Assembly: GCA_020348385.1 (NCBI GenBank)
Contig: CP070750.1
Coordinates: 4,264,520 to 4,328,519 of the forward strand
DNA length: 64,000 nucleotides
From: Candidatus Aminicenantes bacterium
GTDB taxonomy: Bacteria > Acidobacteriota > Aminicenantia > Aminicenantales > Aminicenantaceae
Reading direction: 5' to 3'
Part shown: positions 3,836 through 26,519 of the stretch, one piece after another
How the letters are laid out: each line of letters starts with the position of its first letter
Numbering within the stretch: position 1 is the stretch's first letter
The notes under the pieces: generated by a model
What the model saw: the letters and a program-made list of their open reading frames with translations, nothing else
The model's database searches: none
What the model was told of the DNA's origin: nothing
Made by a program: the position numbers and the translations under genes

Positions 3836-3848
3836 TAAGGAGGTGACA

Positions 3849-4244: not shown

Positions 4245-5582
4245 TCATTCCTCTTCTATACAGTACAAATATTTGTACCCACGGAGGAAGAGCTGTTTTC
4301 CCAAAACCACAGGCGATGCGTTAAAATTATCCTCCAGGATGTTTTTAGCCAGAGTGGCAAATTCAGGGCCCTGTTTGACCACATAAAATGTACCCTTTTG
4401 CCCGGTGACATAAATCCGGTCTTTAGCACCGACTAAAGAAGCGAAAATATTCCCCATTCCTTCCAGTTTCTGTGCCGTGTAAAGGGGCGTTCCCGTCTTG
4501 GCATCGAAACAGGAAAGGTTCCCATTGTTTCCCCTGAGGAAATACAGATAATTTCCTTGGATCATAGGAGAAGGGGTGTAGGGCGTGTCCTTGTCGTGTT
4601 TCCAGACAATGGCGTCGGAATCGGTTATGTTACCTTTGGCTTTTGCCAACTGGATGGCCAAAAGGGCATTTCCCCTGAATCCGCTCATGACATACAGGAT
4701 GCCATCGGCGGTAAGCGGCATGGGAATAGCATTCTGTGTCATGCCACCGCACTCCCAGATCTGCTCACCCGTTTCCAGGTCATAACTGCGGATGAGCTTT
4801 GTGGCACTGGCGATGACCTGAGGTTTCCCGTTGACTTCGACGACATATGGAGTGGCCCATGAAGTGCCTTCATCGCGATCGACCTTCCATATATCCTTCC
4901 CGGTTTTTTTATCCAACGCAACAATGAACGACTGTCCTTCGTGATCCCATGTAATGATGATTTTGTCTCCAAACAAAGCAGGAGAACTCCCTTCTCCGAA
5001 ATTCATGCGTTTGGACAACTGGCCAAAATCCCGTTCCCATTTGATTTGGCCTTCAAAATCCAGACAATAGAGCCCTCGGGAACCAAAATAGGCATAGACA
5101 TGTTCGCCATCGGTCACAGGCGAATGGGAAGCCCAGCTGCCGAATTCATGCGTTCCTTCTTGGGGCATTTCTTCTTTAACCGTTTTTTGCCAGAGTATCC
5201 TTCCGTCATCCCGATTGACAGCCATAACGACAAACCTGTGGATTTTTGTCGTTCTCGTCAAGGGCATGCCCCGCCCATGTTGTGGTTCTGAAGATTGATC
5301 TAGTGCTTGGCCCTCTTTATCGGTTTCAACAGCGGTTAAGATAAAGATCTTATCACCCCAGATGATCGGAGTGGAATGACCCTTACCGGGGATGGCTATT
5401 TTCCATTTGACGTTTTTTGTCTCGCCCCATTCGACAGGCGGATCTCCATCGGGCGATACGCCTGTCATAAATGGACCGCGCCATTGGTGCCAGTATTTTT
5501 CGATATCCGACGCACTTTGAGCCTGGAGAAACGAACCCGTAACGACAAACACACAAGCTATCAAAATCACACTTTTTTTCAT
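4245..5582 (-). CDS. PQQ-like beta-propeller repeat protein, secreted (paralog)
   Basis: Probable start is MKKSVILIACVFVVTGSFLQAQSAS (signal peptide) at 5582; the ORF track extends it to 5714. HQWRGP motif and repeated blade motifs (HSTPIIWGDKIFI). Confidence 0.8.
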   Translation of the reverse strand: MKKSVILIACVFVVTGSFLQAQSASDIEKYWHQWRGPFMTGVSPDGDPPVEWGETKNVKWKIAIPGKGHSTPIIWGDKIFILTAVETDKEGQALDQSSEPQHGRGMPLTRTTKIHRFVVMAVNRDDGRILWQKTVKEEMPQEGTHEFGSWASHSPVTDGEHVYAYFGSRGLYCLDFEGQIKWERDFGQLSKRMNFGEGSSPALFGDKIIITWDHEGQSFIVALDKKTGKDIWKVDRDEGTSWATPYVVEVNGKPQVIASATKLIRSYDLETGEQIWECGGMTQNAIPMPLTADGILYVMSGFRGNALLAIQLAKAKGNITDSDAIVWKHDKDTPYTPSPMIQGNYLYFLRGNNGNLSCFDAKTGTPLYTAQKLEGMGNIFASLVGAKDRIYVTGQKGTFYVVKQGPEFATLAKNILEDNFNASPVVLGKQLFLRGYKYLYCIEEE

Positions 5583-5616
5583 CAAATTCCGTTTCCTTTT
5601 TTTAAATAGTATTTTT

Positions 5617-6981
5617 TTATTGTTCGATGCAGTACAAATGAGAGGACGTTCGAATGAAAAGCTGCGAACCCGAGACAGCAGGTGAAGCCAGAGTATAAGA
5701 TCCATCCAATTCATTGGTCGCCAGCAGCTTGAATTCCGGCTCGACCGAAATGATCGAGGTCACAGCATTTTCGTTTATGATGTAGAGTTTGCCATCGGCC
5801 AAAATCGGAGACGCACTGACAATGCCTTCAGTTGTGGTCTCAGGCCCCCAGATCAGGGTTCCGGTTTTGGCATCTAGGCAGGTCACCAGTCCACGATCAT
5901 CCACCATGTAAAAATACTTCCCGTCACTCACAGGTGAGGGGACATCTGGGGCTGCTGAGCCCTCATACTTCCAAACAAGATGGCTTTCCGTGATATCCCC
6001 GGTTCCCCCGACATTTAAAGCCAAGAGGGGTTTTTTCCGGGTCGGCGCATAGATGATACCATCCACGATAATTGGCGTGGGGACGACCCGATAATTGGGC
6101 CGCTTGAGGGGATTCAATCCCCCTGCCCGCCAAATTTCTTTCCCTGTCTCGAAGTCATGCCCAGTGACGTAATCTCCTCCGGAAATAACGATTTGGGTAT
6201 GGCCATCATGCTCGAGTAAAACCGGTGTGGTGTAGGCATCGGGAGATTCCCTTTGGGCATCCGTGGGACGCTCTTGATGCCACAATTCTTTGCCTGTGGC
6301 GGCATCCAATGAGACAAGATAAGATGGATCGTCAGTCTTCATCCCGTGCAGGACTTCGATGATCAAATTCCCATCATGCAACAAAGGCGAAGAACCATAT
6401 CCCCAGTTATGGCCAAAAGGGCCATAATCCTTCTGAAGATCTTTTTTCCAAACGGGCTTGCCGTCCATATCGAAGGCCGCCACTTTACCCGTCCCGGTGA
6501 CCACCCAGACGTGTTTGCCATCGGTGACAGGTGATGGGGTAGCGTCGTTTTGTTTGCGGTGGAGCTGGTTTTTATCGTCCAGCTCTCGCTTCCAGAGGAT
6601 CTTGCCGTCCTTTTTGGATAGGCAAAACAACAGCAGTTTCGGACCCCCAGGATCGAGCGTACTCCTTCGTCTTCTTCTCTGTGTCTGGCTTTGTTCCTCC
6701 GCCGGTTTTTGCTCCGGCTCTGGTTTAGGCTCGGATTTGGAGGGGGAGTTGATGAATACCCTATCTCCCCAGATGATCGGGGTTGCCGCACTCCAGGAAG
6801 GTAATGATGTCTTCCACACGATGTTTTCCGTTGCGCTCCAACTCATCGGGAGATTTTTCGCATCGATTATCCCGTTGTGATGGGGACCTCGCCAATGAGG
6901 CCAGTTATTCTCTGCCTGCAAAAAACTAGAGATGGATAAAAGGGCCAACAATAAAGCATAAGTGATGACGTGTTTTTTCAT
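5617..6981 (-). CDS. PQQ-like beta-propeller repeat protein, secreted, with a Pro/Glu/Lys/Arg-rich low-complexity insert
   Basis: GGAGG RBS before the ATG at 6981. Signal peptide, WPHWRGP motif, and an insert SKSEPKPEPEQKPAEEQSQTQRRRRRS between blades (nt ~6637-6747). Confidence 0.8.
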   Translation of the reverse strand: MKKHVITYALLLALLSISSFLQAENNWPHWRGPHHNGIIDAKNLPMSWSATENIVWKTSLPSWSAATPIIWGDRVFINSPSKSEPKPEPEQKPAEEQSQTQRRRRRSTLDPGGPKLLLFCLSKKDGKILWKRELDDKNQLHRKQNDATPSPVTDGKHVWVVTGTGKVAAFDMDGKPVWKKDLQKDYGPFGHNWGYGSSPLLHDGNLIIEVLHGMKTDDPSYLVSLDAATGKELWHQERPTDAQRESPDAYTTPVLLEHDGHTQIVISGGDYVTGHDFETGKEIWRAGGLNPLKRPNYRVVPTPIIVDGIIYAPTRKKPLLALNVGGTGDITESHLVWKYEGSAAPDVPSPVSDGKYFYMVDDRGLVTCLDAKTGTLIWGPETTTEGIVSASPILADGKLYIINENAVTSIISVEPEFKLLATNELDGSYTLASPAVSGSQLFIRTSSHLYCIEQ

Positions 6982-7044
6982 TCTATTCCTCCATGTCTCG
7001 GCTTGTCCATATATACACTTCTACAATTTAGGTGGAAAAAATCC

Positions 7045-10000
7045 TCATTCCTTCCGTAAGGCTGGAATAAGATCTTCTTTTGTTGCCAACAAAGCGGCAG
7101 AAAACGTCCATATGATTCCATTCAGACTCACTATGACTAAGATGATAAGAATTGTAGGATAAGGGATTCCCGCACCCGGTGTCAAGAAGGTAGGAAGGAC
7201 GGCCAACAACGCAGCAATAATCCCGAACAAGATCCCCACAACCAACAAGGCCACATGTTCGGACAGGAGAATCGCCTGAATAGACTTTTTGTTGTAACCC
7301 ACGGCGCGGAGCAGCGCCAATTCTCCTCGTCGTTCATTGACATTCCGCCACACGACAACTCCCAAACCCACACTCCCCAAAAGCAATCCAAAACTTCCCA
7401 GGATCAGGAAAATGGATAAATACGTATTCTGGACCGTGTTGAACTCGGCGAGGCGAGTGGATGCAAGAGTCAAATCTAGGCCCTGATCCTGTAAGGCCCA
7501 GGATAAACGATCAGCAACGGTTGTCACCTTTTCAGGAGGCGCATCGACAAGGAATATCCGATAGCCGCTGATCGAGGGATATTTTTGGATTAATGTTTTT
7601 TCGGATACGATGATGTTCCCCTGAAACACGGAATTGGCCAATCCCCCCACCAGTTTGACTGGGAAGGTTTTTCCTTTTTCATCGCTGTAGGTCAAAACAT
7701 CTCCCACGGATTTGCCCAATCCCCACACGATGACGGATAAATCGGCAACGGCCGGGATCATGCCATCGGGTAATTTTTTATCCAAGACCATCCAGGGATT
7801 TTCCGGATCGATCTCACCTGACATGTCGGCGAACGTGAAAGACTTTCTTGCGGCAAGTTCCGCGGGCATAACGCCAATCAACTGGGGATGAGTTACACGG
7901 TTGAGGTTCAAGCAGCTGGCATCATCTCCTTCTTTCACACGAAACGGAACATATTTCACATCATCCGAGTTTATGGCATCCAATCCATAAAGCTGAGTTC
8001 CCTTCTGGCTGTCGAGGTCGTACAGGATCGGAATGGAACTCTCACCAAAAAGTGCGAATCCTCCTGTCCCTGAATCCCGCCTCTCGGAATCCTTAAGGGC
8101 ATTGAGCCGATTGGCACCCACCGTAAAAACGATGAACAAACCGCACGCCAATAGCCCTATCAACGTAATGCTGCGCGTGTGCTTTCTCGCGTTATTACGG
8201 ATTCCGATGTTCACATTGCTCAACCGAACCGCGTCCGTGTTTTTCCCTAGCATATACAGCAACACACGGGTAAAAGCCATTCCCCCGATGAGAAAAAGAG
8301 TACCGGCCAAGAAGAAAAAGAGAAAGGCCTGATCTCCTCTGCCGAAATCCGCCACGACCAGAATAATCAACAGAGCAGCCCAACTGACCAAGCCGATGAT
8401 CAAGCTCGTATTTGGCCTTTTTTTTTCGATCGTTTCGACTTTGGCTAGACCTCTCTGAAGGCCGGTGATGGGACGCTTGATCTGCCTCCAGGTCGCAAGC
8501 CATATGGTGAAAAAGGCAACGGCCACACCGATTGATACACCGATCAAAAGGGAAGAAAATCGGAAATGAATGTGGAGCGCTGAGGTTCCCACAGCACCCC
8601 GCCAGACTGTTTTTAAAGCGCTCAGGATAATCCCGTTGTACAGAACTCCCACAACACCTCCCAGCAGACTGCCGAGCACAACGAGCACAGCTCCTTCACG
8701 CAGAACTGCCCATTTGACAGCTTTCCTCGAGAAACCCAATGCCCGTAACAACCCGTTTTCTTCTGACCGGTTTTCTGTGTTAAAAACAAAAAGCAGACTG
8801 GTCAGCAAAAGGGCAGCGACGATGATGAAAAAACTCAATCCGAGGAATAGCTGAGAAAAATTGACAGACTGCGAGCTGGCACGGAGTCCTTCTTTTTTGA
8901 CATCCCGGAAAACAAATCCTAAATCGCTTGGATCCAGTTTGTTTATCAGAAAACTCTCCACTTCGGCCTGGTCAGAGATGGAGAAACGTACAGCTGTTAA
9001 ATCCCCGAACCGGTTGGCCCACAAGGCTCGAGCCTTATCCAAAGTCACAAAGGCCTTGGGAGTCCCCCTGAAATCGTCCCAGTATTCCTCATCTTTATCC
9101 CGGATTTTTTCCAAATCTATAGGTATGCCAGGATCCCAATCCCGGCAGTTTTCCTCACCGGACAAACCGGGAAAATCAGGCAGCAGATCTCTGTCCGCAT
9201 AAATACCCTCCAGAGGGACGACATCAATAATCCGGAATCCCGATTTTTTTTCCTGCAATTCCCGCCCCAAGCCCAAAATATAATAAGTCAGCTCTATCTG
9301 ATCTCCCACATTTGCGTTTAAATCTTGGGCAAGCCACCCATTGATGAGGATCTCATCGTCCTTCATGCCAGGGGGAATCAGCGGCGATCCGGGAGCAGAA
9401 ACAAAGGAGTAGGGTGTCGCTCGATCGCCCCGGCGGAGTTCGTTAACAAAATAGGTCAATACAGGCTGAGCCCCTTTACCGTATTCCTGTGCAGCAGCGG
9501 CTACAGGAGGAGCGAGAAAGATTCGATTCGATCTGAGTTCGACCATGTTTCGACCGGGAATATTTCTCAATTCAAGGCCGGCATCGGACAGGGTCCAAGC
9601 CTTTTTAAGAGCGTCATTCACTCCTTGTAAATCGAGAGATGCTTCGGCTTTCTCGGCGACAAGCAGAACATTGGCTCTGCCCTCAAAGCCCATTTCTTTC
9701 GATAAAAAATGCAGAGAGACAAACACTGTGCTGGGCGTGAGTTGGTCGGAACGGAGATTGAATTTCCCCAGCGCTGAATCCGCAGCGATGCTTTTGACCA
9801 GAAACCTTCGTGCTAATGATGAGTCGGAATCCAAAGAAAGAGGGGCATCTTTCGGCATGACATCCCGTTTCTCCATGCGCAGGAGAATCTCGTCGTTCTC
9901 CCGGATGTTCAGACGCGATGCCAGAGATCGGTTGACGATGGCCTCGTCGGGAGCAAGTTGCCCGAATCTTTCTTTAATCCCACCCATCTCCCCAAAACGG

Positions 10001-10338
10001 GAATCCACTCCGATAACTTGAATGTCGTTTACTCTGCGTTGCCCTCCCTCAGCGATGGCAATCCCTCTTGTTTGCAGGAGAGGGGCAACCGTCGTGTTCA
10101 GGGATTCGGCAAGATCGTCTGCCATCCTGACTTGGAAAAAACGATCTCCCGAAGAAAGGGCAAATTCTGTCGTTCCCAGTCTGTCAAACACGATTTTTCG
10201 AAGGCTATGACGAACCGAATCGCCGATAACAAGGGCACCGACCAGTATGGCTGTGCTCATCATGGTCCCCAAGACAACCCAGAGATGTGTTTTTCGATAA
10301 AAGAAAAGGCTTCGGAACAAAAATCGTCCTTTGTTCAT
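7045..10338 (-). CDS. ABC transporter permease, FtsX/MacB-type, with duplicated FtsX domains (1097 aa)
   Basis: N-terminus MNKGRFLFRSLFFYRKTHLWVV...GALVIGDS is typical of FtsX-family permeases. Two 4-TM FtsX-like hydrophobic blocks are separated by large extracytoplasmic domains. The stop overlaps the start of the ATPase gene. Confidence 0.8.
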   Translation of the reverse strand: MNKGRFLFRSLFFYRKTHLWVVLGTMMSTAILVGALVIGDSVRHSLRKIVFDRLGTTEFALSSGDRFFQVRMADDLAESLNTTVAPLLQTRGIAIAEGGQRRVNDIQVIGVDSRFGEMGGIKERFGQLAPDEAIVNRSLASRLNIRENDEILLRMEKRDVMPKDAPLSLDSDSSLARRFLVKSIAADSALGKFNLRSDQLTPSTVFVSLHFLSKEMGFEGRANVLLVAEKAEASLDLQGVNDALKKAWTLSDAGLELRNIPGRNMVELRSNRIFLAPPVAAAAQEYGKGAQPVLTYFVNELRRGDRATPYSFVSAPGSPLIPPGMKDDEILINGWLAQDLNANVGDQIELTYYILGLGRELQEKKSGFRIIDVVPLEGIYADRDLLPDFPGLSGEENCRDWDPGIPIDLEKIRDKDEEYWDDFRGTPKAFVTLDKARALWANRFGDLTAVRFSISDQAEVESFLINKLDPSDLGFVFRDVKKEGLRASSQSVNFSQLFLGLSFFIIVAALLLTSLLFVFNTENRSEENGLLRALGFSRKAVKWAVLREGAVLVVLGSLLGGVVGVLYNGIILSALKTVWRGAVGTSALHIHFRFSSLLIGVSIGVAVAFFTIWLATWRQIKRPITGLQRGLAKVETIEKKRPNTSLIIGLVSWAALLIILVVADFGRGDQAFLFFFLAGTLFLIGGMAFTRVLLYMLGKNTDAVRLSNVNIGIRNNARKHTRSITLIGLLACGLFIVFTVGANRLNALKDSERRDSGTGGFALFGESSIPILYDLDSQKGTQLYGLDAINSDDVKYVPFRVKEGDDASCLNLNRVTHPQLIGVMPAELAARKSFTFADMSGEIDPENPWMVLDKKLPDGMIPAVADLSVIVWGLGKSVGDVLTYSDEKGKTFPVKLVGGLANSVFQGNIIVSEKTLIQKYPSISGYRIFLVDAPPEKVTTVADRLSWALQDQGLDLTLASTRLAEFNTVQNTYLSIFLILGSFGLLLGSVGLGVVVWRNVNERRGELALLRAVGYNKKSIQAILLSEHVALLVVGILFGIIAALLAVLPTFLTPGAGIPYPTILIILVIVSLNGIIWTFSAALLATKEDLIPALRKE

Positions 10339-11039
10339 CAGATCACATAGCTTTCCAGATTCCCATTCTGGAGTTTGAACGCCTTTTCCATCAGCCGGGC
10401 AAAATCGAAGGAATGGGTCACGGTTATAAAGGCGGTCCCTTCCTCTTTATTCATTCCGACCAAAAGTCGACCGAGATTTTCAGAAGAGTCCTTGTCGAGC
10501 GAACCTGTCGGTTCATCTGCCAGGACCAGCTTGGGCTTGTTTATCAAGGCCCTGACGACAGCCACACGCTGCATCTCTCCGCCGGACAATTGCGCCGGGA
10601 AATATTCCCTGTGATTGCCAAGGCCGACTCTATCTAACAATTTTTTTGCCCTTTCCTGAACCTCACCGTCCCTGTCCCGTTTTTTCAATCCGAGCGGAAT
10701 CGTCGGGATCAACACGTTTTCCAAAACCGTGCACTGCGGGAGCAGATGATGGAGTTGAAAAATAAAACCGATCTCTTGGTTCCGGATGCGCGAGAGTTCG
10801 GTATCATCACATTCAGCAAGATTTTTCCCGAAAAGCGACACCACTCCGGAGCTGGGTTTATCAAGGGCTCCCATGATGTTCAACAGAGTGCTTTTCCCAG
10901 ATCCCGATGGTCCCACGATGGCTATGGATTCACCCGAGCTGACCTGCATCGAAATGTCTTTCAGCACGGTCGTGTAGCCCTGGCCAGACGGAATATCGTA
11001 TTTTTTGGCAATATTTTTTAGTTCAAGTAACATCTTCAT
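10338..11039 (-). CDS. ABC transporter ATP-binding protein (MacB/LolD-like)
   Basis: Walker A GPSGSGKST, signature LSGGEMQRVAVVRAL, Walker B LVLADEPTGSLD. Probable start is MKMLLELKNI at 11039; the ORF track extends it to 11240. Confidence 0.9.
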   Translation of the reverse strand: MKMLLELKNIAKKYDIPSGQGYTTVLKDISMQVSSGESIAIVGPSGSGKSTLLNIMGALDKPSSGVVSLFGKNLAECDDTELSRIRNQEIGFIFQLHHLLPQCTVLENVLIPTIPLGLKKRDRDGEVQERAKKLLDRVGLGNHREYFPAQLSGGEMQRVAVVRALINKPKLVLADEPTGSLDKDSSENLGRLLVGMNKEEGTAFITVTHSFDFARLMEKAFKLQNGNLESYVI

Positions 11040-13466: not shown

Positions 13467-13476
13467 GATAAATTCC

Positions 13477-17438: not shown

Positions 17439-17445
17439 GATCGTC

Positions 17446-19161: not shown

Positions 19162-19165
19162 GATA

Positions 19166-20512
19166 CTAAGCCCTGAACTGTTTGATTCGAACATCCCGTC
19201 TATCCAATTCCTTGAGTTCCTCTGGCGTCATCAGTCCCAATCGAACTTGCTCATAGGGACAGTAGGCAAAGCAGCGTCCACAGCTGAGGCATGTCCCTTT
19301 GTCCACATCATACTCCAACTGCCTCCGCCGGATAAAAAGGCCGATAAGTTTCAAGCAAAGGATCAAACCGATAAAACCGCCCAATATCCAGCCTCCCCTA
19401 CGGAATTGGCTTTGGATGACACTCGCTTCTGCAAATAACTCTTCCGATGGTTTTCCCGTAGCACGGAAGGCTTTTGTCGCATCGGTCATCTCCGTTCTTT
19501 TTCCCGCATTTTCCAGAAGCACCTCTTCAGCCAAAGATACGGTGGGATGCAGACGGGACAGAGAAACATCCAATCGTGATCCGATCCAGCCAAAACCGAT
19601 GACAACAACAGGAAGGAGGACAAGTAGGGCCGCCACCTGTTTGACATCTCCCTCTCTTTTCATGGGCTGTGTTTCATCATCCGCCTTTTTTATGGCTCCG
19701 AACGGACAGGATTCCTCGCACAACCGGCAGTTGTTGCACTCATCCGGTGTGATCCTGACGTGACGCCTGGAAAGACGTGACATCCAGTTCAAAAGCACTC
19801 CATACGGGCAAAGATAACGGCAGTAGGGACGAGCGACGACTGTTCCCAGCAAGAGCATGGAGAAACCAAAGATGACCATGTTGAAATCTGCCCCAAAACG
19901 GAAAAATCCGATGAAAGGATCGTACTGGCATATGATAAAACCCGCGCCTGTTGCGGCAAACAAGACAGCAAGGCCCAAATAGACATACGGAAAAACACCC
20001 AAGAGGGCAGCCAACCATTCCGGCACGTTGATCGGATTCAGGACGACAGCATCCTGAATGGCCCCGAGAGGACAAACGGCAGCACAGAATGTGCGGCCGA
20101 AAAACAAGGCAAAAACTAAGGGAAGAATAAAAAATAGGACGACAGACAAAGGAATAATGTAGGCTGGGTTGAAAAAAGCGTAGCTGACATTCTGCACAGC
20201 TCCGACAGAACAGACACATCCCTTCCTGTAAAACCCGAAATAGGCAAGAGCAAACACCATCAAAAGGAAGATGTTCCGACGGGAGCGCTGATTGTGAGCG
20301 AAATACGTCGCTAAAGAAAGGGCCGCAACCAAGACGAATATATCCATGTATTCCCATACAGCAGCTCGCGGTGCCGGTGTGAGCAGATCGGGCCGCACAT
20401 AACCCGATTCAAAATCGGGCTTGGGAAAGCGCTCCTGAACTTGGGAGAAGACAAATACAGGACAGAGGAGCACCAGAGCCACAACAAAAATCTTCAACCG
20501 TTTCAATTTCAC
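19166..20512 (-). CDS. NapH/MauN/NosR-family membrane-bound 4Fe-4S ferredoxin-type protein
   Basis: Multiple TM helices. CAAVCPLGA and CRYLCPYG motifs are typical of the NapH/MauN family. C-terminal ferredoxin motifs CNNCRLCEESCP and CLSCGRCFAYCP. Confidence 0.75.
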   Translation of the reverse strand: MKLKRLKIFVVALVLLCPVFVFSQVQERFPKPDFESGYVRPDLLTPAPRAAVWEYMDIFVLVAALSLATYFAHNQRSRRNIFLLMVFALAYFGFYRKGCVCSVGAVQNVSYAFFNPAYIIPLSVVLFFILPLVFALFFGRTFCAAVCPLGAIQDAVVLNPINVPEWLAALLGVFPYVYLGLAVLFAATGAGFIICQYDPFIGFFRFGADFNMVIFGFSMLLLGTVVARPYCRYLCPYGVLLNWMSRLSRRHVRITPDECNNCRLCEESCPFGAIKKADDETQPMKREGDVKQVAALLVLLPVVVIGFGWIGSRLDVSLSRLHPTVSLAEEVLLENAGKRTEMTDATKAFRATGKPSEELFAEASVIQSQFRRGGWILGGFIGLILCLKLIGLFIRRRQLEYDVDKGTCLSCGRCFAYCPYEQVRLGLMTPEELKELDRRDVRIKQFRA

Positions 20513-21096
20513 CCTTCCCGAAATTTTCCGCTCTCATCTCCCCTGAGGATGTAGGGCTGGCTGGCTGGCACCCGTTTCCAAGCCCGGGAGGGACACCTCC
20601 TGGCGATCGAGCACTGATTGCAATTCAAACATCGGTCATGCCGAGCCTGCAGGTACAAAGACCCGTTCCCGAACGAATTGCAGCCTTTCACGCATTTGCC
20701 GCACCCAACACACAATTTCTCATCGATCGTGTATTCAAAATAAGGATCTTCGATGTATGTCCGCTTGATCGCCCCGGAGGGACAGAGCTGGCTTTCCGCT
20801 CCTGTGTCTCTGGATTTGGCCCCGGGCTGAAGATAACCGCTGCACAGGTCGCAATAACCGCACATCGAATAGGAATGAACACATTTCACAGCCGAGTGGG
20901 GCAAAACACAGTTGACCGCGCATTTTTCACACTGGATACAGATGTTGGGATCCAACTGCCAGACCGTCTCTTCGGCTGAAGACTTACGGGACAGGATTCC
21001 TGCCAATCCTCCGACCGTCAGACCCACAATCACATGGAGACTTTTCCTCACAAAATCTCGGCGTTTAACCGGATTTGTTTTCGTTTTTCCCGTCAT
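20509..21096 (-). CDS. Tat-exported 4Fe-4S ferredoxin-type protein (NapG/MauM-like)
   Basis: Twin-arginine motif RRDFVRKSLHVIVGLTVGGLAG. Four CxxCxxC(xx)CP-type clusters (CIQCEKCAVNC, CGYCDLC, CVGCGKCVKGC, CLNCNQC). Overlaps its neighbours by 4 nt. Confidence 0.75.
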   Translation of the reverse strand: MTGKTKTNPVKRRDFVRKSLHVIVGLTVGGLAGILSRKSSAEETVWQLDPNICIQCEKCAVNCVLPHSAVKCVHSYSMCGYCDLCSGYLQPGAKSRDTGAESQLCPSGAIKRTYIEDPYFEYTIDEKLCVGCGKCVKGCNSFGNGSLYLQARHDRCLNCNQCSIARRCPSRAWKRVPASQPYILRGDESGKFREG

Positions 21097-21344
21097 TTCC
21101 GGCCTCTATATTCCTGCTTTGTTTCCCTGGCTTTGCGCTGCCGACAACCGGGAAGCTTCGAACAAATCCTGCAGGGTAAATCGATGACACAGGACGTTTT
21201 TTTCCCTGAGACCTTCCTCCAAGCAAGAGACAAACCCCCAAACGCCAGCCCGCTCAACAAAACCATCCGCACTCCATCCTTCAAAAACTCTCGCCTGTTT
21301 TTTTTCCTATGCTTCTCCTGCATCGTGAAACTCTCCTGCTTCAT
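21093..21344 (-). CDS. Small Tat-signal protein with a C-terminal Cys cluster (hypothetical)
   Basis: RREFLKDG twin-arginine motif plus a hydrophobic helix, then CVIDLPCRICSKLPGC and a basic tail. ATGA overlap with both flanking genes. 83 aa, so coding status is uncertain. Confidence 0.45.
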   Translation of the reverse strand: MKQESFTMQEKHRKKNRREFLKDGVRMVLLSGLAFGGLSLAWRKVSGKKTSCVIDLPCRICSKLPGCRQRKARETKQEYRGRK

Positions 21345-22330
21345 GATTTTTTCTTTGCAAAGATCCTCACTCGCTTTTGAAGCGGATCTAAAACATAGAT
21401 TTTTTGTGTGGAATCGACAGCCAGATCCAGGCCGACCGTGCCCTCCAGAAATTGTTCTGTCGGGGCAACAACGGAAACAAGATTTCCGAGGCGGTTGTAG
21501 ATCTTGATTCTAGGGAGGCCCTTTTCGCTGGTCACAAAGGAACCGTCCACCAACAGGGTAAAGTGGGATGGATTGCAGCACCCGCTGAATCCCTGGATCT
21601 CCATCCCGAACTCACCCCATGATGTCCGGAAATTTCCATCGACGGTATAATTCTCGAGGGAATGGCGCCCGGTGTTGGCGACCCAGAGAAATCCGTCCGC
21701 ATCGATAGCCACGTCGAAATAGGGGCTAGGGATGATGAATCCCGGAATATCTTTGGTTTCGTTTTTATCTCCGATCCTTTGAAGATTCAATCCGGATTTA
21801 TCGAACTTCCAGACAATTTTATTCCCAGCATCAGCGACAAAAACACTTTTTGCTGAGACCGCAATCGATGTGATGATGGCTTTTTCACCCAGAGATTCCC
21901 AACCAGCTTGTCTTATGCCTTTCTGATCGTAAACCTCGACATGATCTCCCATCCCGAGATACAAATCATGGTTTTTGTCGATAGCCAAACAGCGGATCGG
22001 CCCACTTGATTTAAAAGAAGATCGCGGTGTCCCATCGTTGTCGAAGACAAGTACAGAACCGTTGCCGGACACATAAATCCTATCGTCCGGCCCGACGGCA
22101 ATTCCGGAAACCTTCGGCAAATCGATGGGAATGTGTCCCACCTCGGAGTAATGAACCAAATCGGCGCCGCTCTCTGCATAGCTTTGGATATCGTAGGCAA
22201 AAGGATTCTGTTGATCATTTTTTCCATGGCCTCGAACAGCTCTGTATCCGAAGTAGAAGATGCCCGTCAAAGAAACCGCTAAAATCGCACTGGTTAAAAT
22301 TTTTTCTTTTTTCAAATTAAATATACCCAT
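21341..22330 (-). CDS. NHL-repeat beta-propeller protein, N-terminally membrane-anchored
   Basis: N-terminal TM segment ILTSAILAVSLTGIFYF. Repeated D-x-x-G-x-hydrophobic-Y/W-V-hydrophobic-D blades (DRIYVSGNGSVLVFD, HDLYLGMGDHVEVYD, SVFVADAGNKIVWKFD, FLWVANTG) typical of NHL/six-bladed propellers. Confidence 0.7.
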   Translation of the reverse strand: MGIFNLKKEKILTSAILAVSLTGIFYFGYRAVRGHGKNDQQNPFAYDIQSYAESGADLVHYSEVGHIPIDLPKVSGIAVGPDDRIYVSGNGSVLVFDNDGTPRSSFKSSGPIRCLAIDKNHDLYLGMGDHVEVYDQKGIRQAGWESLGEKAIITSIAVSAKSVFVADAGNKIVWKFDKSGLNLQRIGDKNETKDIPGFIIPSPYFDVAIDADGFLWVANTGRHSLENYTVDGNFRTSWGEFGMEIQGFSGCCNPSHFTLLVDGSFVTSEKGLPRIKIYNRLGNLVSVVAPTEQFLEGTVGLDLAVDSTQKIYVLDPLQKRVRIFAKKKS

Positions 22331-22344
22331 TTCGCAGTCTCCGG

Positions 22345-23778
22345 TTATGGATTGACCCTCAGATCGATACAGACCAATCGGCGCGAATCCCGCGCGAGCA
22401 ACCGGCCCTCAACAAAAGCCAACGGCCCCCAAGCATCCACTCCTTCGAGAATTTTGACCTGAGCCAGTTGAACGTATTCCCTTGCACTGGCTCTGGCTAT
22501 AGTTAAAACTCCATCATCGCTGAGTATGAAAAACTTATCATCTGCCACGATATAAGGGCCCAGCCCGAATCGATTCGTCTTTCCGCTGGACCAGATAAAT
22601 CGACTGATGTCATCCGGATGGCAGCACACGAATTGATTGCGCAGCGGTCCGGCATCCTTGGGCAATATGCAAAAAAGATGACCCGAGAAGAATATCGGTG
22701 TTTGTTGCTCGGACGCCATTCCTTCCTCCGGTTTTATCGTTTGGATGGCTTCCACCGAAAAAACACCGGCTTCCTCCTTAATTCTGACCATCGAGCTGCC
22801 CGACCCGTATCCGGCCGTCAGAAAGATTCTCCTATCTCCCAGATAAACGGGAGATGGCGCGATGACATTGTGGTTCCACAAACGGGATTCAAACAATATC
22901 TTGCCCGCTTCCTCCCCATCTGCGGCAACACCAACAATCCCTCCGATAGCGCAGTACACATACATCTTTATGCCGTTTATGACAAAAGGCATGACGGAAG
23001 AATGGGACATTTTCCAGTTGTTGGGATTGGGCGTTTCCCACACCACCTCACCGGTTTCACAATCGACAGCAATGATCAGCGATTTCCCCCCAACAGCAAA
23101 CACGGCCAGGGTGTCATCGATCAGAGGGCACTGCCCGGTGTACCAAAGGGGCACCTCGGTTCCATAGTCTTTTCCCAAATCGATGCCCCATTTGAGATCT
23201 CCGGTGACTGCATCCACACACATGACATGACATTTAGGCCCGATGGTCACAACATACTTTTCTGTTGCCGCTGGAACAGTCCGAGACATCCCATGATTCC
23301 GTTTCACGAAAAGGTCATACCCCCTCCGCCAAATCTCAGCTCCATTATCCAAAGAAAAACAACGCAAAACATCCGCCCTCTGCTCTTCATCGTAATCCAG
23401 AAGATAGACCCGTCCGTTCGAAACGACTGGACCGGCATGACCCTCCCCTAAATCTATGGACCAGAGAATATCTGGCCCTGCATCGTCCCATCTGTCGATA
23501 AGTTGGATGTTTTCCTTGCTGATGTTATCAAAATCGGCTCCCCGGAATCTCGGCCAGCTCCCACGGATTGCGGAGGGGATTCCCTCGAAACTTTCGAAAT
23601 GGGCACCGATTTCCACAGCATCGCTAGCGCTGACAAATCCAAGAGGTCGGTTGTCCATCCCGGGAAGGCTTTCTGCAAAATCCTTGACCGGATTGTACAG
23701 GAGCCACCAAGTCAGAAAAACCAGCCCGAGAAAGGCTGTTCCGAGAATAGTGACACGGTTTACTAATTTCTCATTCAT
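22345..23778 (-). CDS. Membrane-anchored PQQ-like beta-propeller repeat protein (paralog)
   Basis: Probable start is MNEKLVNRVTILGTAFLGLVFLTWWLL (TM anchor) at 23778, preceded by GGTGA. WPRFRGADF motif and blades. Confidence 0.8.
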   Translation of the reverse strand: MNEKLVNRVTILGTAFLGLVFLTWWLLYNPVKDFAESLPGMDNRPLGFVSASDAVEIGAHFESFEGIPSAIRGSWPRFRGADFDNISKENIQLIDRWDDAGPDILWSIDLGEGHAGPVVSNGRVYLLDYDEEQRADVLRCFSLDNGAEIWRRGYDLFVKRNHGMSRTVPAATEKYVVTIGPKCHVMCVDAVTGDLKWGIDLGKDYGTEVPLWYTGQCPLIDDTLAVFAVGGKSLIIAVDCETGEVVWETPNPNNWKMSHSSVMPFVINGIKMYVYCAIGGIVGVAADGEEAGKILFESRLWNHNVIAPSPVYLGDRRIFLTAGYGSGSSMVRIKEEAGVFSVEAIQTIKPEEGMASEQQTPIFFSGHLFCILPKDAGPLRNQFVCCHPDDISRFIWSSGKTNRFGLGPYIVADDKFFILSDDGVLTIARASAREYVQLAQVKILEGVDAWGPLAFVEGRLLARDSRRLVCIDLRVNP

Positions 23779-24994
23779 CACCGATATGATAGACCATAAG
23801 CGCATCGCCGTGCCGGATGTAAAGACGCCCGTCCTTGATAACGGGATGGGCCCAGTGTTCACCAGAGCCTTTTTTCACCCGAAAAGAACTCACCAGATGA
23901 AACTCCTCAGGATTGGGTTTGACCAAACCTACATACCCGTTTTCACTGTAGCAAAACATCATTCCATCGGCAAAAATGATCGCCCCTTTATTCCCAATTT
24001 TTCTTGCCGTGTACTGGACTTTTCCGGTTTTCCAGTCCAGGCAATGCCATCCTCGATTATTATGGCCCGAGCCGTAAATATAGCCGTCGACTAAAATCGC
24101 GGCTCCCATCTGACTGTCAAGCTTTCTTTGCGACCAGACCCGCTTGACACTCGCTCCGTCTTCGGAGAGCTGGAACATCTGACCGCCGGTACCATATCCG
24201 CTCACCGTATACACAAAACCGTTATGATAGAGGGGTGTGTTCGCATTAACTGTATAATCCGTGACATGGGATTGGCGCCACAGATAGTCTCCTGTATCGG
24301 CATCGATGCCGACGAAGGAGCTGCCCGTCATGGTTAAAAGCAGGCGTCTTTTGCCGTGTTTGACAAGACAGGGAGAACAGTATCCTGATGATTCTCCGTC
24401 TGCTTTAATCTCCCAGATCGTTTTCCCGGAATGCCTGTCCAATGCAACGATCGTGACTTTCCGACCTCCAGGGGTGCAAAAAACCCGATCCCCATCCACA
24501 AGAAGGGACTCCGTCATTCCCCACTGCAAATTCCGTGCTCCGAATTGTGCCATCAGATCGACCGACCATATCTTCTTGCCATCCGTGCTAAAACAGACAG
24601 CTTGTCCCTTGGCGCTCATCAAGTAGATCCTGTCGCCGACAACGGTGGGAGTGGTCCGGGCACCGGGTCGACTTCCATTCCATTCCGGGCCGTAGGAGGC
24701 TTTCCAGACAGTTTTCCCATTTCTATCGAAGGAAAACAAAAACCCTTCGCCGCCGGTCATCCCGGTCAGATAAACACGATCCGCTGTCACGGCCGGAGAA
24801 GAATAGCCCTCCCCAAGACCCTCCACAGACCATATTAGCGCAGGCCCTACCTCCGGCCATGCCTTCAATAGATTCTCGCCGGGATAAACACCATCCCGGT
24901 TGGGCCCCCGCCACTGGGATTCTATCTGCCCTAAGGCTATAGAACATCCCAACCCAATAAACAACAAGGTGGTCACCACAAAGATTTTTTTCAT
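23771..24994 (-). CDS. PQQ-like beta-propeller repeat protein, secreted (paralog)
   Basis: Signal peptide MKKIFVVTTLLFIGLGCSIALGQ. QWRGPNRDGVYPG motif. Blades such as YSSPAVTADRVYL. Confidence 0.8.
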   Translation of the reverse strand: MKKIFVVTTLLFIGLGCSIALGQIESQWRGPNRDGVYPGENLLKAWPEVGPALIWSVEGLGEGYSSPAVTADRVYLTGMTGGEGFLFSFDRNGKTVWKASYGPEWNGSRPGARTTPTVVGDRIYLMSAKGQAVCFSTDGKKIWSVDLMAQFGARNLQWGMTESLLVDGDRVFCTPGGRKVTIVALDRHSGKTIWEIKADGESSGYCSPCLVKHGKRRLLLTMTGSSFVGIDADTGDYLWRQSHVTDYTVNANTPLYHNGFVYTVSGYGTGGQMFQLSEDGASVKRVWSQRKLDSQMGAAILVDGYIYGSGHNNRGWHCLDWKTGKVQYTARKIGNKGAIIFADGMMFCYSENGYVGLVKPNPEEFHLVSSFRVKKGSGEHWAHPVIKDGRLYIRHGDALMVYHIGDE

Positions 24995-25094
24995 CTCACA
25001 CCTCTACTCACTTTCTTCATTTATAACCAGAATAACCGAGAGAATTATATTCTAGGACACTTTGCGTATTCTCAGCAATCAACTTGTAACCAGG

Positions 25095-25140
25095 TCTCAA
25101 TATTATACTAATCCTATGGAATTAATATTATAACAGATTT
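25095..25140 (-). promoter_or_regulatory. Candidate sigma70-type promoter with an extended -10 (TGnTATAAT) for the minus-strand gene run starting at 24994
   Basis: The reverse complement of the AT-rich 25000-25157 spacer contains aaatcTGtTATAATatt and, further downstream, a tagTATAAT element. Match by eye only. Confidence 0.25.
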
Positions 25141-25157
25141 TGGATCAAACGTTAGGG

Positions 25158-26519
25158 CTATTTTTCAGAGATGGCCATGAGATGATGATGGGTTCGGATA
25201 TACAAGGTTCCCTCAGATATGGCAGGTGTCGCCATGCATTTATCCTTCATCGGATTGGTTGCCAAGACTTCGAATTCAGGTCCCGCTTTGATGACAAAAA
25301 CATCTCCCTCTTCACTGGCAAAATAAAGTTTTCCATCTGCTGCCACACCGGAGGCTGAAAAACCTGTCATTTTCCCCAGCTGTTCTTTGTATACCACTTC
25401 ACCTGTTTTTGCGTTGTAGCAAGTCAGGGCTCCGTTCCACTGCAAATTGTAAAGAAAATCGCCGTAAATGAGAGGTGTCAGCATATATGAGCCTCCTCGC
25501 CTGACGCTCCAGACAATGGAATCGTTGGAAGTATTGTCTTCCTTCAAGGATATGTCTCCCTCTGACTCCAGTTTTATTGCATAGATAGGAGACAAGCGTC
25601 CGTGAGCACTGTTGATGAACACCATACCATGGGCAACCACAGGTGTGGGAACCGGGATATCCCCTCCCCCGGATATTTCCCATATTTCTTTTCCCGTTTT
25701 AAAATCATAACCACCCATGTGTTTGAATCCGTTTACGATGATCTGCGTTTGTTTTTCTCCCACATGAACGGTCGGTGTGCTCCAAGTGGGAACATCCTCA
25801 CGGGCAGTCCGCCAAATTTCCTTCCCGGTTTTAATGTCCAAGGCAGCAAGGAAGGCAGTGTTGAGAGCATCGCATTGGACGATGACAACGCCCTGGTGGA
25901 TAACCGGAGAACTGGCAAACTCCCATTGGGCCGACGGCACCATAAAAAAGGCCGCATCGAGAAGACCGAAGTCTTTTTTCCAGATCAATTTGCCGTCCAT
26001 ATTGTAACAATAGAGGCCTTCAGAGCCGAAAAAAGCAACCACGTATTTCCCGTCTGTGGAGGGTGTTGAATTGGCATGGGTTGCCTTGGGATGACGTTTA
26101 ACTTTGGGAACACCCTTGTGCGCTGTTTTTTCCCACATTATTTTTCCGGTTTTTTTATCCAAGCAGTACACTTTCCATTCGTGCACAGAGTCATCATCGA
26201 CGGGTTCGATACTTCCATACAGCCCCACTTTGAGCTCCGCATCAGCTTCGCCAGTTGCCGTTGTGACAAACATGCGATCTCCCCAAATAACAGGACTGGA
26301 ATGAGCCAATCCGGGCAGCTTGATTTTCCAATTAATGTTCTTGGGTGTATCTACATCCCAGGATACAGGTGTAGCATATCTATCGGCAATACCACTGGCG
26401 TTTGGCCCACGGAAACTGGGCCAGTTTTCCCCATCAGTCGTATTCTGGCCTTGCAGTACGATTAACGTTCCGAATAAAATCACCGTACTCAGTAAAATCC
26501 TACTTGAATTTCTTAACAC
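25158..26519 (-). CDS. PQQ-like beta-propeller repeat protein, secreted (paralog of 2420..3835)
   Basis: Signal peptide. WPSFRGPNASGIA motif. Co-linear and ~55-60% identical to the + strand ORF at 2420..3835. Confidence 0.85.
   Translation of the reverse strand: MLRNSSRILLSTVILFGTLIVLQGQNTTDGENWPSFRGPNASGIADRYATPVSWDVDTPKNINWKIKLPGLAHSSPVIWGDRMFVTTATGEADAELKVGLYGSIEPVDDDSVHEWKVYCLDKKTGKIMWEKTAHKGVPKVKRHPKATHANSTPSTDGKYVVAFFGSEGLYCYNMDGKLIWKKDFGLLDAAFFMVPSAQWEFASSPVIHQGVVIVQCDALNTAFLAALDIKTGKEIWRTAREDVPTWSTPTVHVGEKQTQIIVNGFKHMGGYDFKTGKEIWEISGGGDIPVPTPVVAHGMVFINSAHGRLSPIYAIKLESEGDISLKEDNTSNDSIVWSVRRGGSYMLTPLIYGDFLYNLQWNGALTCYNAKTGEVVYKEQLGKMTGFSASGVAADGKLYFASEEGDVFVIKAGPEFEVLATNPMKDKCMATPAISEGTLYIRTHHHLMAISEK

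Follow-up and report, generated by a model that had tools for sequence, protein, structure and literature searches.

Gene content and layout of the run

The sequence analysed here (the window) is a 64,000-nucleotide (nt) stretch of the genome of a Candidatus Aminicenantes bacterium (GenBank assembly GCA_020348385.1, contig CP070750.1, positions 4,264,520 to 4,328,519), and our subject is a run of genes within it that extends from 26519 to 4245 as an unbroken minus-strand series in the window's list of open reading frames (ORFs). An original prediction described 17 genes in this run, eight of them for PQQ_2-type beta-propeller proteins, and proposed that together they form an extracytoplasmic redox machine. 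With starts picked by signal peptides and orthologs, the recount gives 16 genes, here called P1 to P16 in order from 26519 downward. Seven of them encode PQQ_2 propellers (P1, P2, P3, P8, P11, P15 and P16); the eighth paralog, 58% identical to P1, lies outside the run on the plus strand at 2384-3835. Six genes of the run make up a core that recurs in other genomes:

P4, 21341..22330, minus strand: membrane-anchored six-bladed NHL propeller, 329 amino acids (aa); Pfam NHL
P6, 20509..21096, minus strand: polyferredoxin exported by twin-arginine translocation (Tat), 195 aa, about four [4Fe-4S] clusters; Fer4 families
P7, 19166..20512, minus strand: polytopic iron-sulfur (Fe-S) membrane protein of the NapH/NosR superfamily, 448 aa; Fer4_5; query of the synteny scan
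P8, 17446..19194, minus strand: three-helix transmembrane (3-TM) N-terminal domain followed by a periplasmic PQQ_2 propeller, 582 aa; PQQ_2 83 bits
P9, 15078..17438, minus strand: fused BfuC-BfuB protein, 786 aa; Pfam/NCBIfam
P10, 13477..15081, minus strand: BfuA/NfnA-like Fe-S flavoprotein, 534 aa; Fer2_4, Fer4_20, Pyr_redox_2

The domain calls made earlier from the letters alone are borne out by Pfam: PQQ_2 and NHL propellers, a Tat Fer4 protein, a Fer4_5 membrane polyferredoxin, a GT4 glycosyltransferase, an ABC_tran ATPase and a double FtsX permease, together with a fused 2Fe-2S_thioredx + Complex1_51K + NADH_4Fe-4S protein and its Fer2_4 + Fer4_20 + Pyr_redox_2 partner. The W-P-x-F/W-R-G motif ascribed to all of the propellers is present in P1, P8, P11 and P15, takes the variant form W-H-Q-W-R-G in P16, and reads SWPRFRG in P3.

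The genes are closely packed from P2 to P14, where neighbours either overlap or stand no more than 14 nt apart. The 4-nt ATGA-type overlaps reported at 21344/21341, 21096/21093, 20512/20509, 15081/15078 and 12309/12306 are all present, as are those of 17 nt at 11039/11023 and of 1 nt at 10338. Tight spacing does not extend to P1/P2 (163 nt, AT-rich), P14/P15 (63 nt) or P15/P16 (34 nt). The first of these is the only sizeable gap in the run and holds no plausible seventeenth ORF; the second contains a promoter-like site (7009-6980, 10 of 12 matches). G+C content is uniform along the run (0.48-0.51), so nothing suggests a recent island, and tRNA and Rfam searches of the window returned no matches.

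A six-gene core conserved across phyla

A profile of P7 searched against one genome per species yielded 80 loci, in which ORFs were called and each assigned by BLASTP to one of the 16 window proteins. The six core genes, encoding the NHL propeller, the Tat ferredoxin, the NapH-like protein, P8, the NuoEF-type protein and the GltD-like protein, are all present in every one of the 49 loci with enough flanking sequence, and wherever they are found they lie on a single strand in the window's order. The carriers represent about ten phyla: Aminicenantes and other Acidobacteriota, KSB1, Latescibacterota, Calditrichota, Bacteroidota, Planctomycetota, Lentisphaerota, Verrucomicrobiota (about 24 loci), Armatimonadota, a Limnocylindrales metagenome-assembled genome (MAG) and Firestonebacteria. 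One carrier, Perlabentimonas gracilis M08_MB (Bacteroidota, locus L036), is in culture. Across loci the median gaps between neighbouring core genes are 1-22 nt, with the exception of the interval between the NHL and ferredoxin genes, where a small Tat gene is sited. Two independent metagenome/MAG contigs with P7 homologs about 70% identical to ours have an identical gene order, and the closest named homologs of P7, P3 and P4 come from Aminicenantes, Acidobacteriota or Latescibacterota.

The same gene order in about ten phyla is an arrangement far beyond chance. Domain content, cofactor motifs, predicted topology and conserved co-location can be read directly from these loci. The original prediction was exposed to the possibility that orthologous clusters would lack the redox genes, and they are instead found in all of the full-flank loci; the cluster is likewise conserved elsewhere as a unit, with both order and tight spacing kept across phyla. 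The emphasis on eight paralogous propellers did not survive in the same way. It is the NHL protein, the 3-TM P8 and usually P3 that are the conserved periplasmic parts, and the paralog expansion is, judged by these comparisons, a local elaboration on a smaller core of very wide conservation. The frequent additions to that core are P3, the small four-Cys Tat protein P5, and a set comprising P11, the GT4 glycosyltransferase and a MacB-type ABC transporter. When the unassigned ORFs from 83 loci were clustered, no further conserved neighbour family emerged around the core; lineage-restricted neighbours (FtsK, sulfatase, pilin-like and LolA-like genes) seem unrelated or merely suggestive.

These observations bear directly on the suggestion that there is no single system here, and that a NapGH-like pair merely has for neighbours in this genome a housekeeping transhydrogenase of the Nfn type, some BamB-like lipoproteins and an ABC transporter resembling Lol. 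Each module does have plausible stand-alone relatives, and P1, P15 and P16 are variable and may have promoters of their own. The suggestion is nevertheless largely refuted by synteny, that is, by the joint presence of the six core genes in all 49 full-flank loci, which represent about ten phyla, and by their shared order, orientation and near-zero spacing wherever they are found. It is further contradicted by P10, which is without the NADPH domain required for a transhydrogenase, and by the propellers, none of which reaches the cut-off for BamB. We regard such a chance neighbourhood as very improbable.

A Bfu-type flavoprotein module without an NADPH domain

P9 comprises a NuoE part, a thioredoxin-like 2Fe-2S part, a NuoF-type FMN/NADH part, a [4Fe-4S] site and, at its C-terminus, two further [4Fe-4S] sites. 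A 2Fe-2S_thioredx match at residues 15-157 (169 bits), corresponding to a NuoE-like [2Fe-2S] domain, identifies the BfuC portion, and matches to Complex1_51K, SLBB and NADH_4Fe-4S identify the BfuB portion; a second 2Fe-2S_thioredx stretch falls at about 185-270 and two Fer4 matches at 731-785. This is the full complement by which the literature defines the BC core of Bfu enzymes, the first [4Fe-4S] being that of the helix bundle; the N-terminal thioredoxin-like 2Fe-2S part and the C-terminal pair of [4Fe-4S] clusters are the marks of BfuB. The best matches in the PDB are NfnB (9n5u_B, 704 bits, aligned over P9 residues 179-785), 9bov_B, StnB (8oh5_B) and HydB, with 660-704 bits for NfnB/StnB/HydB. 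The BfuC-BfuB fusion is kept in essentially all loci. In NfnABC the C-terminal BfuB domain with two [4Fe-4S] clusters passes low-potential electrons to ferredoxin (PMC9304861, PMC11829005).

P10 has an N-terminal [2Fe-2S] domain, NfnL/GltD-like Fe-S and FAD parts, and NuoG-like [4Fe-4S] clusters. It is recognisable as a BfuA protein by its Fer2_4 match at residues 2-78, its Fer4_Nqo3 match at 457-521 and its alignment to NfnA/StnC, and its best PDB relatives are the NfnA/StnC subunits that correspond to the partners of P9. The alignment to Thermococcus NfnA (9bov_A) covers residues 1-288 and 427-672 of the latter and skips residues 289-426, the stretch that forms the NADPH-binding Rossmann subdomain and contains GGGNTAMD. 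P10 then ends at the equivalent of NfnA residue ~680 of 1178, without the Fdh-like C-terminal domain. This short form is common to 45 orthologs from all phyla examined, none of which has a second dinucleotide motif. The description of P10 as a NuoG/GltD-like partner stands as far as its domains are concerned, except that the NAD(P)H-binding subdomain is absent.

By its sequence, then, the P9/P10 pair is a Bfu-type (NfnABC/Stn-like) module from which the NADPH domain has been deleted. NADH can bind this module, and NADPH probably cannot bind at the P10 site. Identification as a true NfnABC transhydrogenase was rejected on the loss of the NADPH subdomain, which is gone from all 45 orthologs, and on the lack of the Fdh-like domain. 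Since the FAD branch of P10 is without a nicotinamide site, a protein or membrane partner is to be expected there in place of NADPH. Elsewhere in the window, at 52950-55253 on the minus strand, a 767-aa protein fuses an NfnS-like part (NAD_binding_1, DHODB Fe-S) to an NfnL/GltD-like part with a full-length Pyr_redox_2 domain; by sequence it is a canonical NADPH-binding Nfn-type enzyme, unlike P10 with its missing domain.

Membrane and Tat-exported iron-sulfur proteins

P7 has at least seven hydrophobic segments and matches Fer4_5 (52.7 bits) in two stretches. It carries two CX3CP motifs (CAAVCP and CRYLCP) and two CxxCxxCxxxCP ferredoxin motifs (CNNCRLCEESCP and CLSCGRCFAYCP), and all of the Cys residues are invariant. 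This polytopic layout with two motifs of each kind places it in the NapH-like superfamily (Pfam Fer4_5, PF12801). At the N-terminus a signal-like segment precedes an invariant motif, ERFPKPDF..Y.RP, that is predicted to be periplasmic, and the positive-inside rule predicts a cytoplasmic position for the CX3CP and ferredoxin motifs. A sequence search of the PDB with P7 found no solved relative and generic ferredoxins at most.

P6, whose gene overlaps that of P7 by 4 nt, has the architecture of NapG: a twin-arginine motif (KRRDFVRK) and four [4Fe-4S] motifs. The arginine pair and 17 Cys, which are arranged in the four cluster motifs, are invariant in 79 orthologs, and P6 is the most conserved protein of the set, with 50-88% identity across phyla. 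Its PDB search likewise returned generic ferredoxins only. The earlier label of a NapG/NapH-like pair is thus apt at the level of superfamily and architecture and no closer, as both proteins score far below the equivalog cut-offs: P7 reaches 45.7/46.6 bits against 213/234 for NapH/MauN (TIGR02163, NF007013), and P6 reaches 16.5 bits against 269 for NapG (NF007012). A further small gene lies between those for P4 and P6:

P5, 21093..21344, minus strand: small Tat-signal protein, 83 aa, with RREFLK and four Cys; frequent accessory

P5 has no Pfam or NCBIfam match. ORFs homologous to it occupy the gap between the NHL and ferredoxin genes in seven phyla, with the consensus RRxFLK ... C-x6-C-x2-C-x5-C-x2-P-x-A, and it is possibly a membrane-anchored mini Fe-S protein.

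Anchored propellers P3, P4 and P8

Three propellers, P3, P4 and P8, carry hydrophobic anchors at their N-termini, with three such segments in P8 (residues 35-53, 112-130 and 157-175). P4 and P8 belong to the core, and P3 is its usual companion:

P3, 22345..23778, minus strand: N-terminally anchored eight-bladed PQQ_2 propeller, 477 aa; anchor and AlphaFold2 (AF2) model

P4 is identical to UCE41362.1 and belongs to the NHL family (40.3 bits against a cut-off of 20), with a six-bladed fold; like the other core components it is found in all of the full-flank loci. A vicinal Cys pair, C251/C252 within G-C-C-N-P, is invariant, and CCNP occurs in 147 of 150 representatives of the family. A profile of this NHL family collects 1178 clusters at 50% identity with E<=1e-30. 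Among its 150 best representatives no domain fusion was found: nearly all are single-domain proteins of ~300-390 aa, the exceptions being a few fragments and two longer entries. The AF2 model of P4 (mean confidence score, pLDDT, 79) has the NHL fold, the best structural matches being the NHL domains of Thin, TRIM2/3 and PknD. A PGF..PSP.FD loop is also kept. Both it and the G-C-C-N-P loop fall in poorly modelled stretches of a six-bladed model that is otherwise good, and the conserved loops at 191-202 and 240-246 have low confidence.

P3 orthologs precede the NHL gene in 43 loci from most phyla. Their invariant motifs are KRNHGMSRT, WYTGQCP, PNP..M.HSS, GYG.G, QQTP and FGLGP. The AF2 model (pLDDT 85) has eight blades, with BamB and tetrathionate hydrolase as the best PDB folds at 13-15% identity, and the motifs KRNHGMSRT, WYTGQCP, PNP..M.HSS, QQTP and FGLGP appear to sit in the loops that enter the inner strand of one blade after another. 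In propellers such loops line the central funnel, which suggests that here they would form a pocket for a ligand or cofactor and not the face of a scaffold; P3 is named here as a candidate catalytic or ligand-binding subunit. P8, directly after P7 with a median gap of 3 nt in 72 loci and present in all phyla sampled, is conserved chiefly in residues of generic blade type. In a KSB1 single-cell genome (L021:7922-9262) and a Firestonebacteria MAG (L083:7767-8990) an extra P3-like gene precedes the Tat ferredoxin gene, following the NHL gene (in L021, the NHL and small Tat genes), an insertion which indicates that even within the core the set of periplasmic propellers is subject to change.

Are any of these proteins members of known propeller enzyme families? 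Had the original prediction been mistaken, the propellers could have been expected to be a housekeeping family, true BamB, and none reaches the BamB equivalog cut-offs (TIGR03300, 285.2 bits; NF008351, 423 bits). P11 comes nearest with 159/113.5 bits, and the other six score 23-63; BamB identity was rejected for all of them. Identity as true PQQ quinoproteins was rejected on the same kind of evidence, with 15-92 bits for the seven propellers against cut-offs of 480 (TIGR03075) and 833 (TIGR03074) for the PQQ dehydrogenases, and there are no pqq genes within the 64-kb window.

A related explanation would make the propellers quinoprotein dehydrogenases, dependent on pyrroloquinoline quinone (PQQ), that feed the NapH-like protein as their electron acceptor. 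Each of the seven matches Pfam PQQ_2, and PF01011 gives weak, partial matches besides; a vicinal Cys pair is also known from methanol dehydrogenase. An arrangement of this sort has been proposed for clusters of ExaA with NapH-like proteins, which occur in 172 genomes (PMC8238504). The shortfall of 15-92 bits against 480-833 tells against it, as does length (390-480 aa for the propellers against ~570-780 aa for quinoproteins). The vicinal Cys pair, moreover, belongs to the NHL protein and not to a PQQ_2 propeller, and the electrons of a quinoprotein would presumably be too high in potential to need a Bfu-type module. Quinoprotein activity of this kind seems highly unlikely.

The accessory set P11-P14 and soluble propellers

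Downstream of P10 lie four genes that are found near the core in several phyla:

P11, 12306..13466, minus strand: lipoprotein, eight-bladed PQQ_2/ACSF4-type propeller, 386 aa; lipobox LFLSC; accessory
P12, 11023..12309, minus strand: cytoplasmic GT4 glycosyltransferase, 428 aa; Glycos_transf_1, Glyco_transf_4; accessory
P13, 10338..11039, minus strand: ABC ATPase of the LolD/MacB/DevA type, 233 aa; ABC_tran 121 bits; accessory
P14, 7045..10338, minus strand: duplicated FtsX/MacB-type permease, 1097 aa; two FtsX, weak MacB_PCD; accessory

P11 matches Beta-prop_ACSF4 with 206 bits and PQQ_2 with 173 bits. Its gene comes after that of P10 in Aminicenantes, KSB1, Latescibacterota, Calditrichota and Bacteroidota; in a Pirellulales locus it comes before that of P3. 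P12, which reaches no NCBIfam equivalog, accompanies P11 in 28 loci, where the two genes overlap by a median of 4 nt. Orthologs of P13 (46-76% identical) lie near the core, in varying positions, in at least six phyla. P14 has ten hydrophobic (TM) segments and two large periplasmic domains; its orthologs are upstream of P3 in Phycisphaerales/Pirellulales, downstream of P10 in locus L047 and divergent from the core in L051. With a separate ATPase, an FtsX permease and large periplasmic domains, P13 and P14 constitute a MacB/LolCDE-type (type VII) ABC transporter, and they remain below the Lol equivalog cut-offs (LolD, 247.6 against 307.75 bits; lolCE, 37.6 against 362). The order P11-GT4-ABC(-FtsX) follows the GltD-like gene in five phyla, precedes P3 in Pirellulales/Phycisphaerales and is divergent in an Acidoferrum MAG; that the set is kept near the core despite such rearrangement argues for a functional tie. 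In four Bacteroidota loci (L036, L037, L038 and L046; e.g. L046:1780-2508) a LolA-like (PF17131) gene lies upstream of P2-like propellers, which hints at a lipoprotein- or lipid-carrier link for the ABC/lipoprotein set. The alternative voiced in the original prediction, a surface-protein family with its own export genes, fits this accessory set and not the rest of the run.

The remaining propellers, the soluble paralogs, vary in number from none to four per locus:

P1, 25158..26519, minus strand: secreted PQQ_2 propeller with signal peptide, 453 aa; PQQ_2 87 bits; accessory
P2, 23771..24994, minus strand: secreted PQQ_2 propeller of the P3 type, 407 aa; PQQ_2 94.5 bits; accessory
P15, 5617..6981, minus strand: secreted PQQ_2 paralog, 454 aa; PQQ_2 131 bits; accessory
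P16, 4245..5582, minus strand: secreted PQQ_2 paralog, 445 aa; PQQ_2 90 bits; accessory
Eighth paralog, 2384..3835, plus strand: PQQ_2 paralog with lipoprotein-like N-terminus, 483 aa; PQQ_2 85.5 bits; convergent with the run

P1, P15, P16 and the copy at 2384-3835 resemble the propeller of P8, to which P1 is 27%, P15 26% and P16 27% identical (P16 is also 35% identical to P1); P2 resembles P3 (BLAST E 1e-25). P1 occurs only in some Aminicenantes and Calditrichota loci, and genes similar to P16 occur in just two other loci. P2-like copies number from zero to four in other phyla, with one to four upstream of P3 in Bacteroidota and Calditrichota. Within the flanks read, no ORF of any other locus matched P15 best, and P15 possibly has its own promoter. 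The PQQ_2 paralogs are mutually distant, and an identity of 21-35% indicates that they are old by sequence; P1, P2, P15, P16 and the 2384-3835 copy are, on their distribution, lineage-specific add-ons.

Several of these features could be brought together in a different explanation, in which reductant is exported for periplasmic thiol/disulfide or envelope upkeep in a DsbD-like manner. The vicinal Cys pair of the NHL protein would act as a redox-active disulfide that takes electrons from the Tat ferredoxin, in a manner resembling ferredoxin:thioredoxin reductase. The PQQ_2 propellers would have no enzymatic task and serve instead as scaffolds or clients, and the products of the P11-GT4-ABC genes would send out a lipoprotein or glycoconjugate belonging to the same structure of the envelope. 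The invariance of CCNP in the NHL family speaks for this, as do the mostly generic blade conservation of P8, the position of P11 as the most BamB-like protein (159 bits), the LolD/LolC-like matches of P13 and P14 together with the LolA-like gene in four Bacteroidota loci, and a VKOR-DsbA fusion elsewhere in the window which shows that the organism manages periplasmic disulfides. However, a bifurcation flavoprotein and a four-cluster ferredoxin are heavy equipment for a task normally done by NADPH/thioredoxin-driven DsbD or CcdA, the invariant polar loop residues of P3 have the pattern of a ligand pocket and not of a scaffold, and no thioredoxin-fold protein is encoded within the cluster. We judge a thiol or envelope function of this kind to be quite unlikely.

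Proposed electron path and its direction

Our favoured interpretation, held with only a little more confidence than doubt, is that the run encodes a heme-free, membrane-spanning Fe-S/flavin electron-transfer complex that would carry electrons from NADH to periplasmic propellers. A single membrane-spanning complex is proposed because of the fixed co-location of the genes, a Bfu module without a soluble third substrate, the polytopic P7, the Tat-exported Fe-S proteins and the anchored propellers. The redox-machine idea of the original prediction is retained in this form, its cytoplasmic, membrane and propeller parts being co-conserved; its stress on the paralogs and its NADPH site are given up. 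A cytochrome-based conduit was considered and rejected on the absence of CxxCH heme motifs from all 16 proteins of the run. No Ni-Fe, Fe-Fe, Mo/W-pterin or heme catalyst is encoded within the cluster.

From the genes and their layout we infer a physical complex, a direction of flow, catalysis by propellers and a role for the ABC set, as follows. The cytoplasmic P9/P10 module would exchange electrons with NADH, and possibly with ferredoxin, and would dock on the cytoplasmic [4Fe-4S]/CX3CP face of P7. P7 would relay electrons across the membrane to the Tat-exported four-cluster P6, with P5 participating alongside it in most phyla. P6 would then serve the propellers anchored on the outer face, namely P4 with its vicinal Cys pair, the 3-TM P8 and usually P3, of which P4 and/or P3 may be the terminal sites, reducing a periplasmic substrate. 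P11-P14 might assemble or anchor the periplasmic part, or supply an exported glycoconjugate. Net flow outward, from NADH to the periplasm, is favoured because the membrane potential would aid it and because the genes include no catalyst suited to a low-potential donor. As the module is of the bifurcation type, reaction with the substrate may call for a low redox potential.

The same complex could in principle run in reverse, as an uptake or energy-conserving dehydrogenase: the propellers would oxidise a low-potential periplasmic donor, and P6/P7 would pass the electrons to the Bfu module for reduction of NAD+ and/or ferredoxin. Bfu enzymes are reversible, and their third substrate usually lies between NADH and ferredoxin in potential (PMC9304861, PMC11829005). 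NapH-like modules accompany reductases as well as oxidases such as ExaA (PMC8238504), and the sequences do not fix the direction. By contrast, electrons moving inward would oppose the membrane potential, the donor-side catalysts named above (Ni-Fe, Fe-Fe, Mo/W-pterin, heme) are absent from the cluster, and many of the carriers look like fermentative heterotrophs, which would seem to profit more from an electron outlet. We think inward flow unlikely.

A number of observations weigh against the proposed complex or narrow its scope. The loci were found by way of P7, hence the association of the genes holds from P7 outward only. Promoter and terminator consensus scans of 3800-28600 gave counts no higher than shuffled expectation and are uninformative on co-transcription. 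P3 adjoins the core in only 3 of 17 Verrucomicrobiota loci, and P5 is absent from Verrucomicrobiota and from one Aminicenantes subclade; with P3 mostly non-adjacent and P5 missing in Verrucomicrobiota, the assignment of catalysis to P3 cannot be universal. The propellers show no recognisable redox cofactor site, and sequence and Foldseek searches of the PDB (the latter for P3 and the NHL protein) return generic matches: BamB, PQQ, tetrathionate hydrolase, designer-propeller and TRIM-NHL structures, with 13-21% identity for BamB, tetrathionate hydrolase and the TRIM-type NHL domains. Lastly, NapH-type proteins free of heme and flavin, NapH included, have no established route for electrons across the membrane, and a quinone might act as intermediate.

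More specifically, and with considerable doubt, we advance the tentative proposal that the complex may represent a new membrane-bound class of Bfu enzyme, in which low-potential electrons would be exported through a heme-free, possibly quinone-independent relay from the NapH-like protein to the Tat polyferredoxin, and on to a novel sort of periplasmic catalyst made of NHL and PQQ_2 propellers, with the invariant vicinal-Cys site as active centre. If this is true, many uncultured lineages of the FCB group, the PVC group and Acidobacteriota would share an unrecognised periplasmic reductive or respiratory reaction.

Surroundings of the run in the window

Beyond the end of the run, at 89-2356, a glutamate-synthase-like protein with GXGXG and GATase domains precedes the paralog at 2384-3835, and a gene for a DGC-domain protein follows at 3843-4226 (plus strand). 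Upstream of P1, the region 26520-28118 is AT-rich (G+C ~0.42) and contains a divergent hemerythrin gene (26716-27138, plus strand), after which about 1 kb is without ORFs of more than 86 aa; a permissive Rfam search gave no match there either. A 2Fe-2S and molybdopterin-binding pair of the xanthine-dehydrogenase/aldehyde-oxidase family follows at 28119-30712 (plus strand), and a second, separate MacB/FtsX-type permease of 803 aa at 30713-33124 (minus strand). The VKOR-DsbA/thioredoxin fusion (46430-47695, minus strand, 421 aa) is a periplasmic disulfide-forming system and forms the background to the Cys residues of the propellers. At 57090-59180, [FeFe]-hydrogenase-like Fe_hyd_lg_C and ferredoxin motifs are fused to HisKA/HATPase_c, with a hybrid PAS histidine kinase/receiver at 55234-56721 and a receiver protein at 59205-59885 on either side; this minus-strand unit, 55234-59885, looks like a sensory hydrogenase-kinase signalling unit.

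Significance

If the proposed path is correct, a widespread cluster ties the cytoplasmic NADH/ferredoxin pool to chemistry on the extracellular side of the membrane without hemes. The scale of its distribution is considerable, at about ten phyla and more than 1100 clusters at 50% identity for the NHL subunit alone. The Bfu family would gain a membrane-bound, periplasm-facing type, one of the many orphan NapH-like systems would acquire defined partners, and proteins routinely annotated as 'BamB' or 'PQQ-binding-like' would become possible catalysts. The carriers are abundant heterotrophs of sediment, peat, groundwater and bioreactors (Aminicenantes, Latescibacterota, Calditrichota, Verrucomicrobiota, Planctomycetota), and an overlooked electron outlet or inlet would alter metabolic reconstructions of these groups. 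The existence of a cultured carrier, Perlabentimonas gracilis M08_MB, makes the question directly testable.

Comparison with known systems

NapH-like modules serve periplasmic propeller oxidoreductases (NosZ, NirS, ExaA) in a modular way, and most such systems are uncharacterised (PMC8238504). The present run resembles NapGH/NosGH, NosR, PceC/RdhC and MauMN in its combination of a polytopic Fer4_5 protein with CX3CP and [4Fe-4S] motifs and a Tat multi-cluster ferredoxin beside a periplasmic propeller (PMC8238504). Unlike the NapGH/NosGH family, its P7 and P6 fall far below the cut-offs, it includes no FMN-binding domain, ApbE, cytochrome, NapA, NosZ or RdhA, and a cytoplasmic NuoEF-type flavoprotein is fixed in the operon. 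P7 also differs from the NapH-like family in its extra TM helices and its invariant ERFPKPDF motif.

On the cytoplasmic side the nearest relatives are the Bfu enzymes NfnABC and StnABC (9n5u, 9bov, 8oh5), with which P9 shares its domain set and P10 its [2Fe-2S] domain, NfnL-like FAD domain and NuoG-like clusters. A 2022 survey of Bfu enzymes contains no type of this kind, and 17 of its BfuB clades have no assignment (PMC9304861). In contrast to NfnABC/StnABC, BfuC and BfuB are here fused, the NADPH subdomain and the Fdh-like domain are gone, and the genes stand in fixed association with partners in the membrane and periplasm.

The nos system (nosZ with nosR or nosGH, nosDFY and nosL) appears comparable in that it joins a propeller enzyme to an electron supply of the NapH type and, for maturation, to an ABC transporter and a lipoprotein, and it may be taken as the nearest analogy for the ABC/GT4/lipoprotein set. 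It differs in that the run has no NosZ, cupredoxin domain or NosD, that its ABC transporter is of the MacB/FtsX type and not NosFY, and that its propellers are without a His-rich copper site.

The eight-bladed PQQ_2 fold of the P3 model is that of BamB (YfgL) and tetrathionate hydrolase, and P11, judged by its lipobox, is a lipoprotein as BamB is. Unlike BamB, these propellers show 13-15% identity and sub-cut-off scores, and P3 and P8 are anchored in the inner membrane and accompanied by redox genes, not Bam genes. Rnf and EtfABCX/FixABCX offer a likeness in a NuoF/RnfC-like NADH-flavin site, a membrane polyferredoxin and a possible coupling of ferredoxin, NADH and the membrane. The run differs from them in having no RnfA/D/E/G or Etf subunits, and in periplasmic carriers that are Fe-S proteins and propellers in place of covalent flavins.

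The original prediction knew of no characterised system with this combination, and we too found no description in the literature searched, the coverage of which is incomplete, so that an earlier account is possible. Neither the survey of NapH-like proteins and flavinylation (PMC8238504) nor that of Bfu enzymes (PMC9304861) mentions the cluster, and a paper on Hydrogenedentota Bfu enzymes that cites Perlabentimonas concerns hydrogenase clusters, not this one. The building blocks are known, namely Bfu enzymes, NapH-like proteins, Tat polyferredoxins, PQQ_2 and NHL propellers and MacB-type ABC transporters; their fixed combination matches no described system. On the evidence of the genes, we rate it as NapH-type extracytoplasmic electron transfer probably joined in function to a Bfu-type module, with a catalytic end that is as yet uncharacterised.

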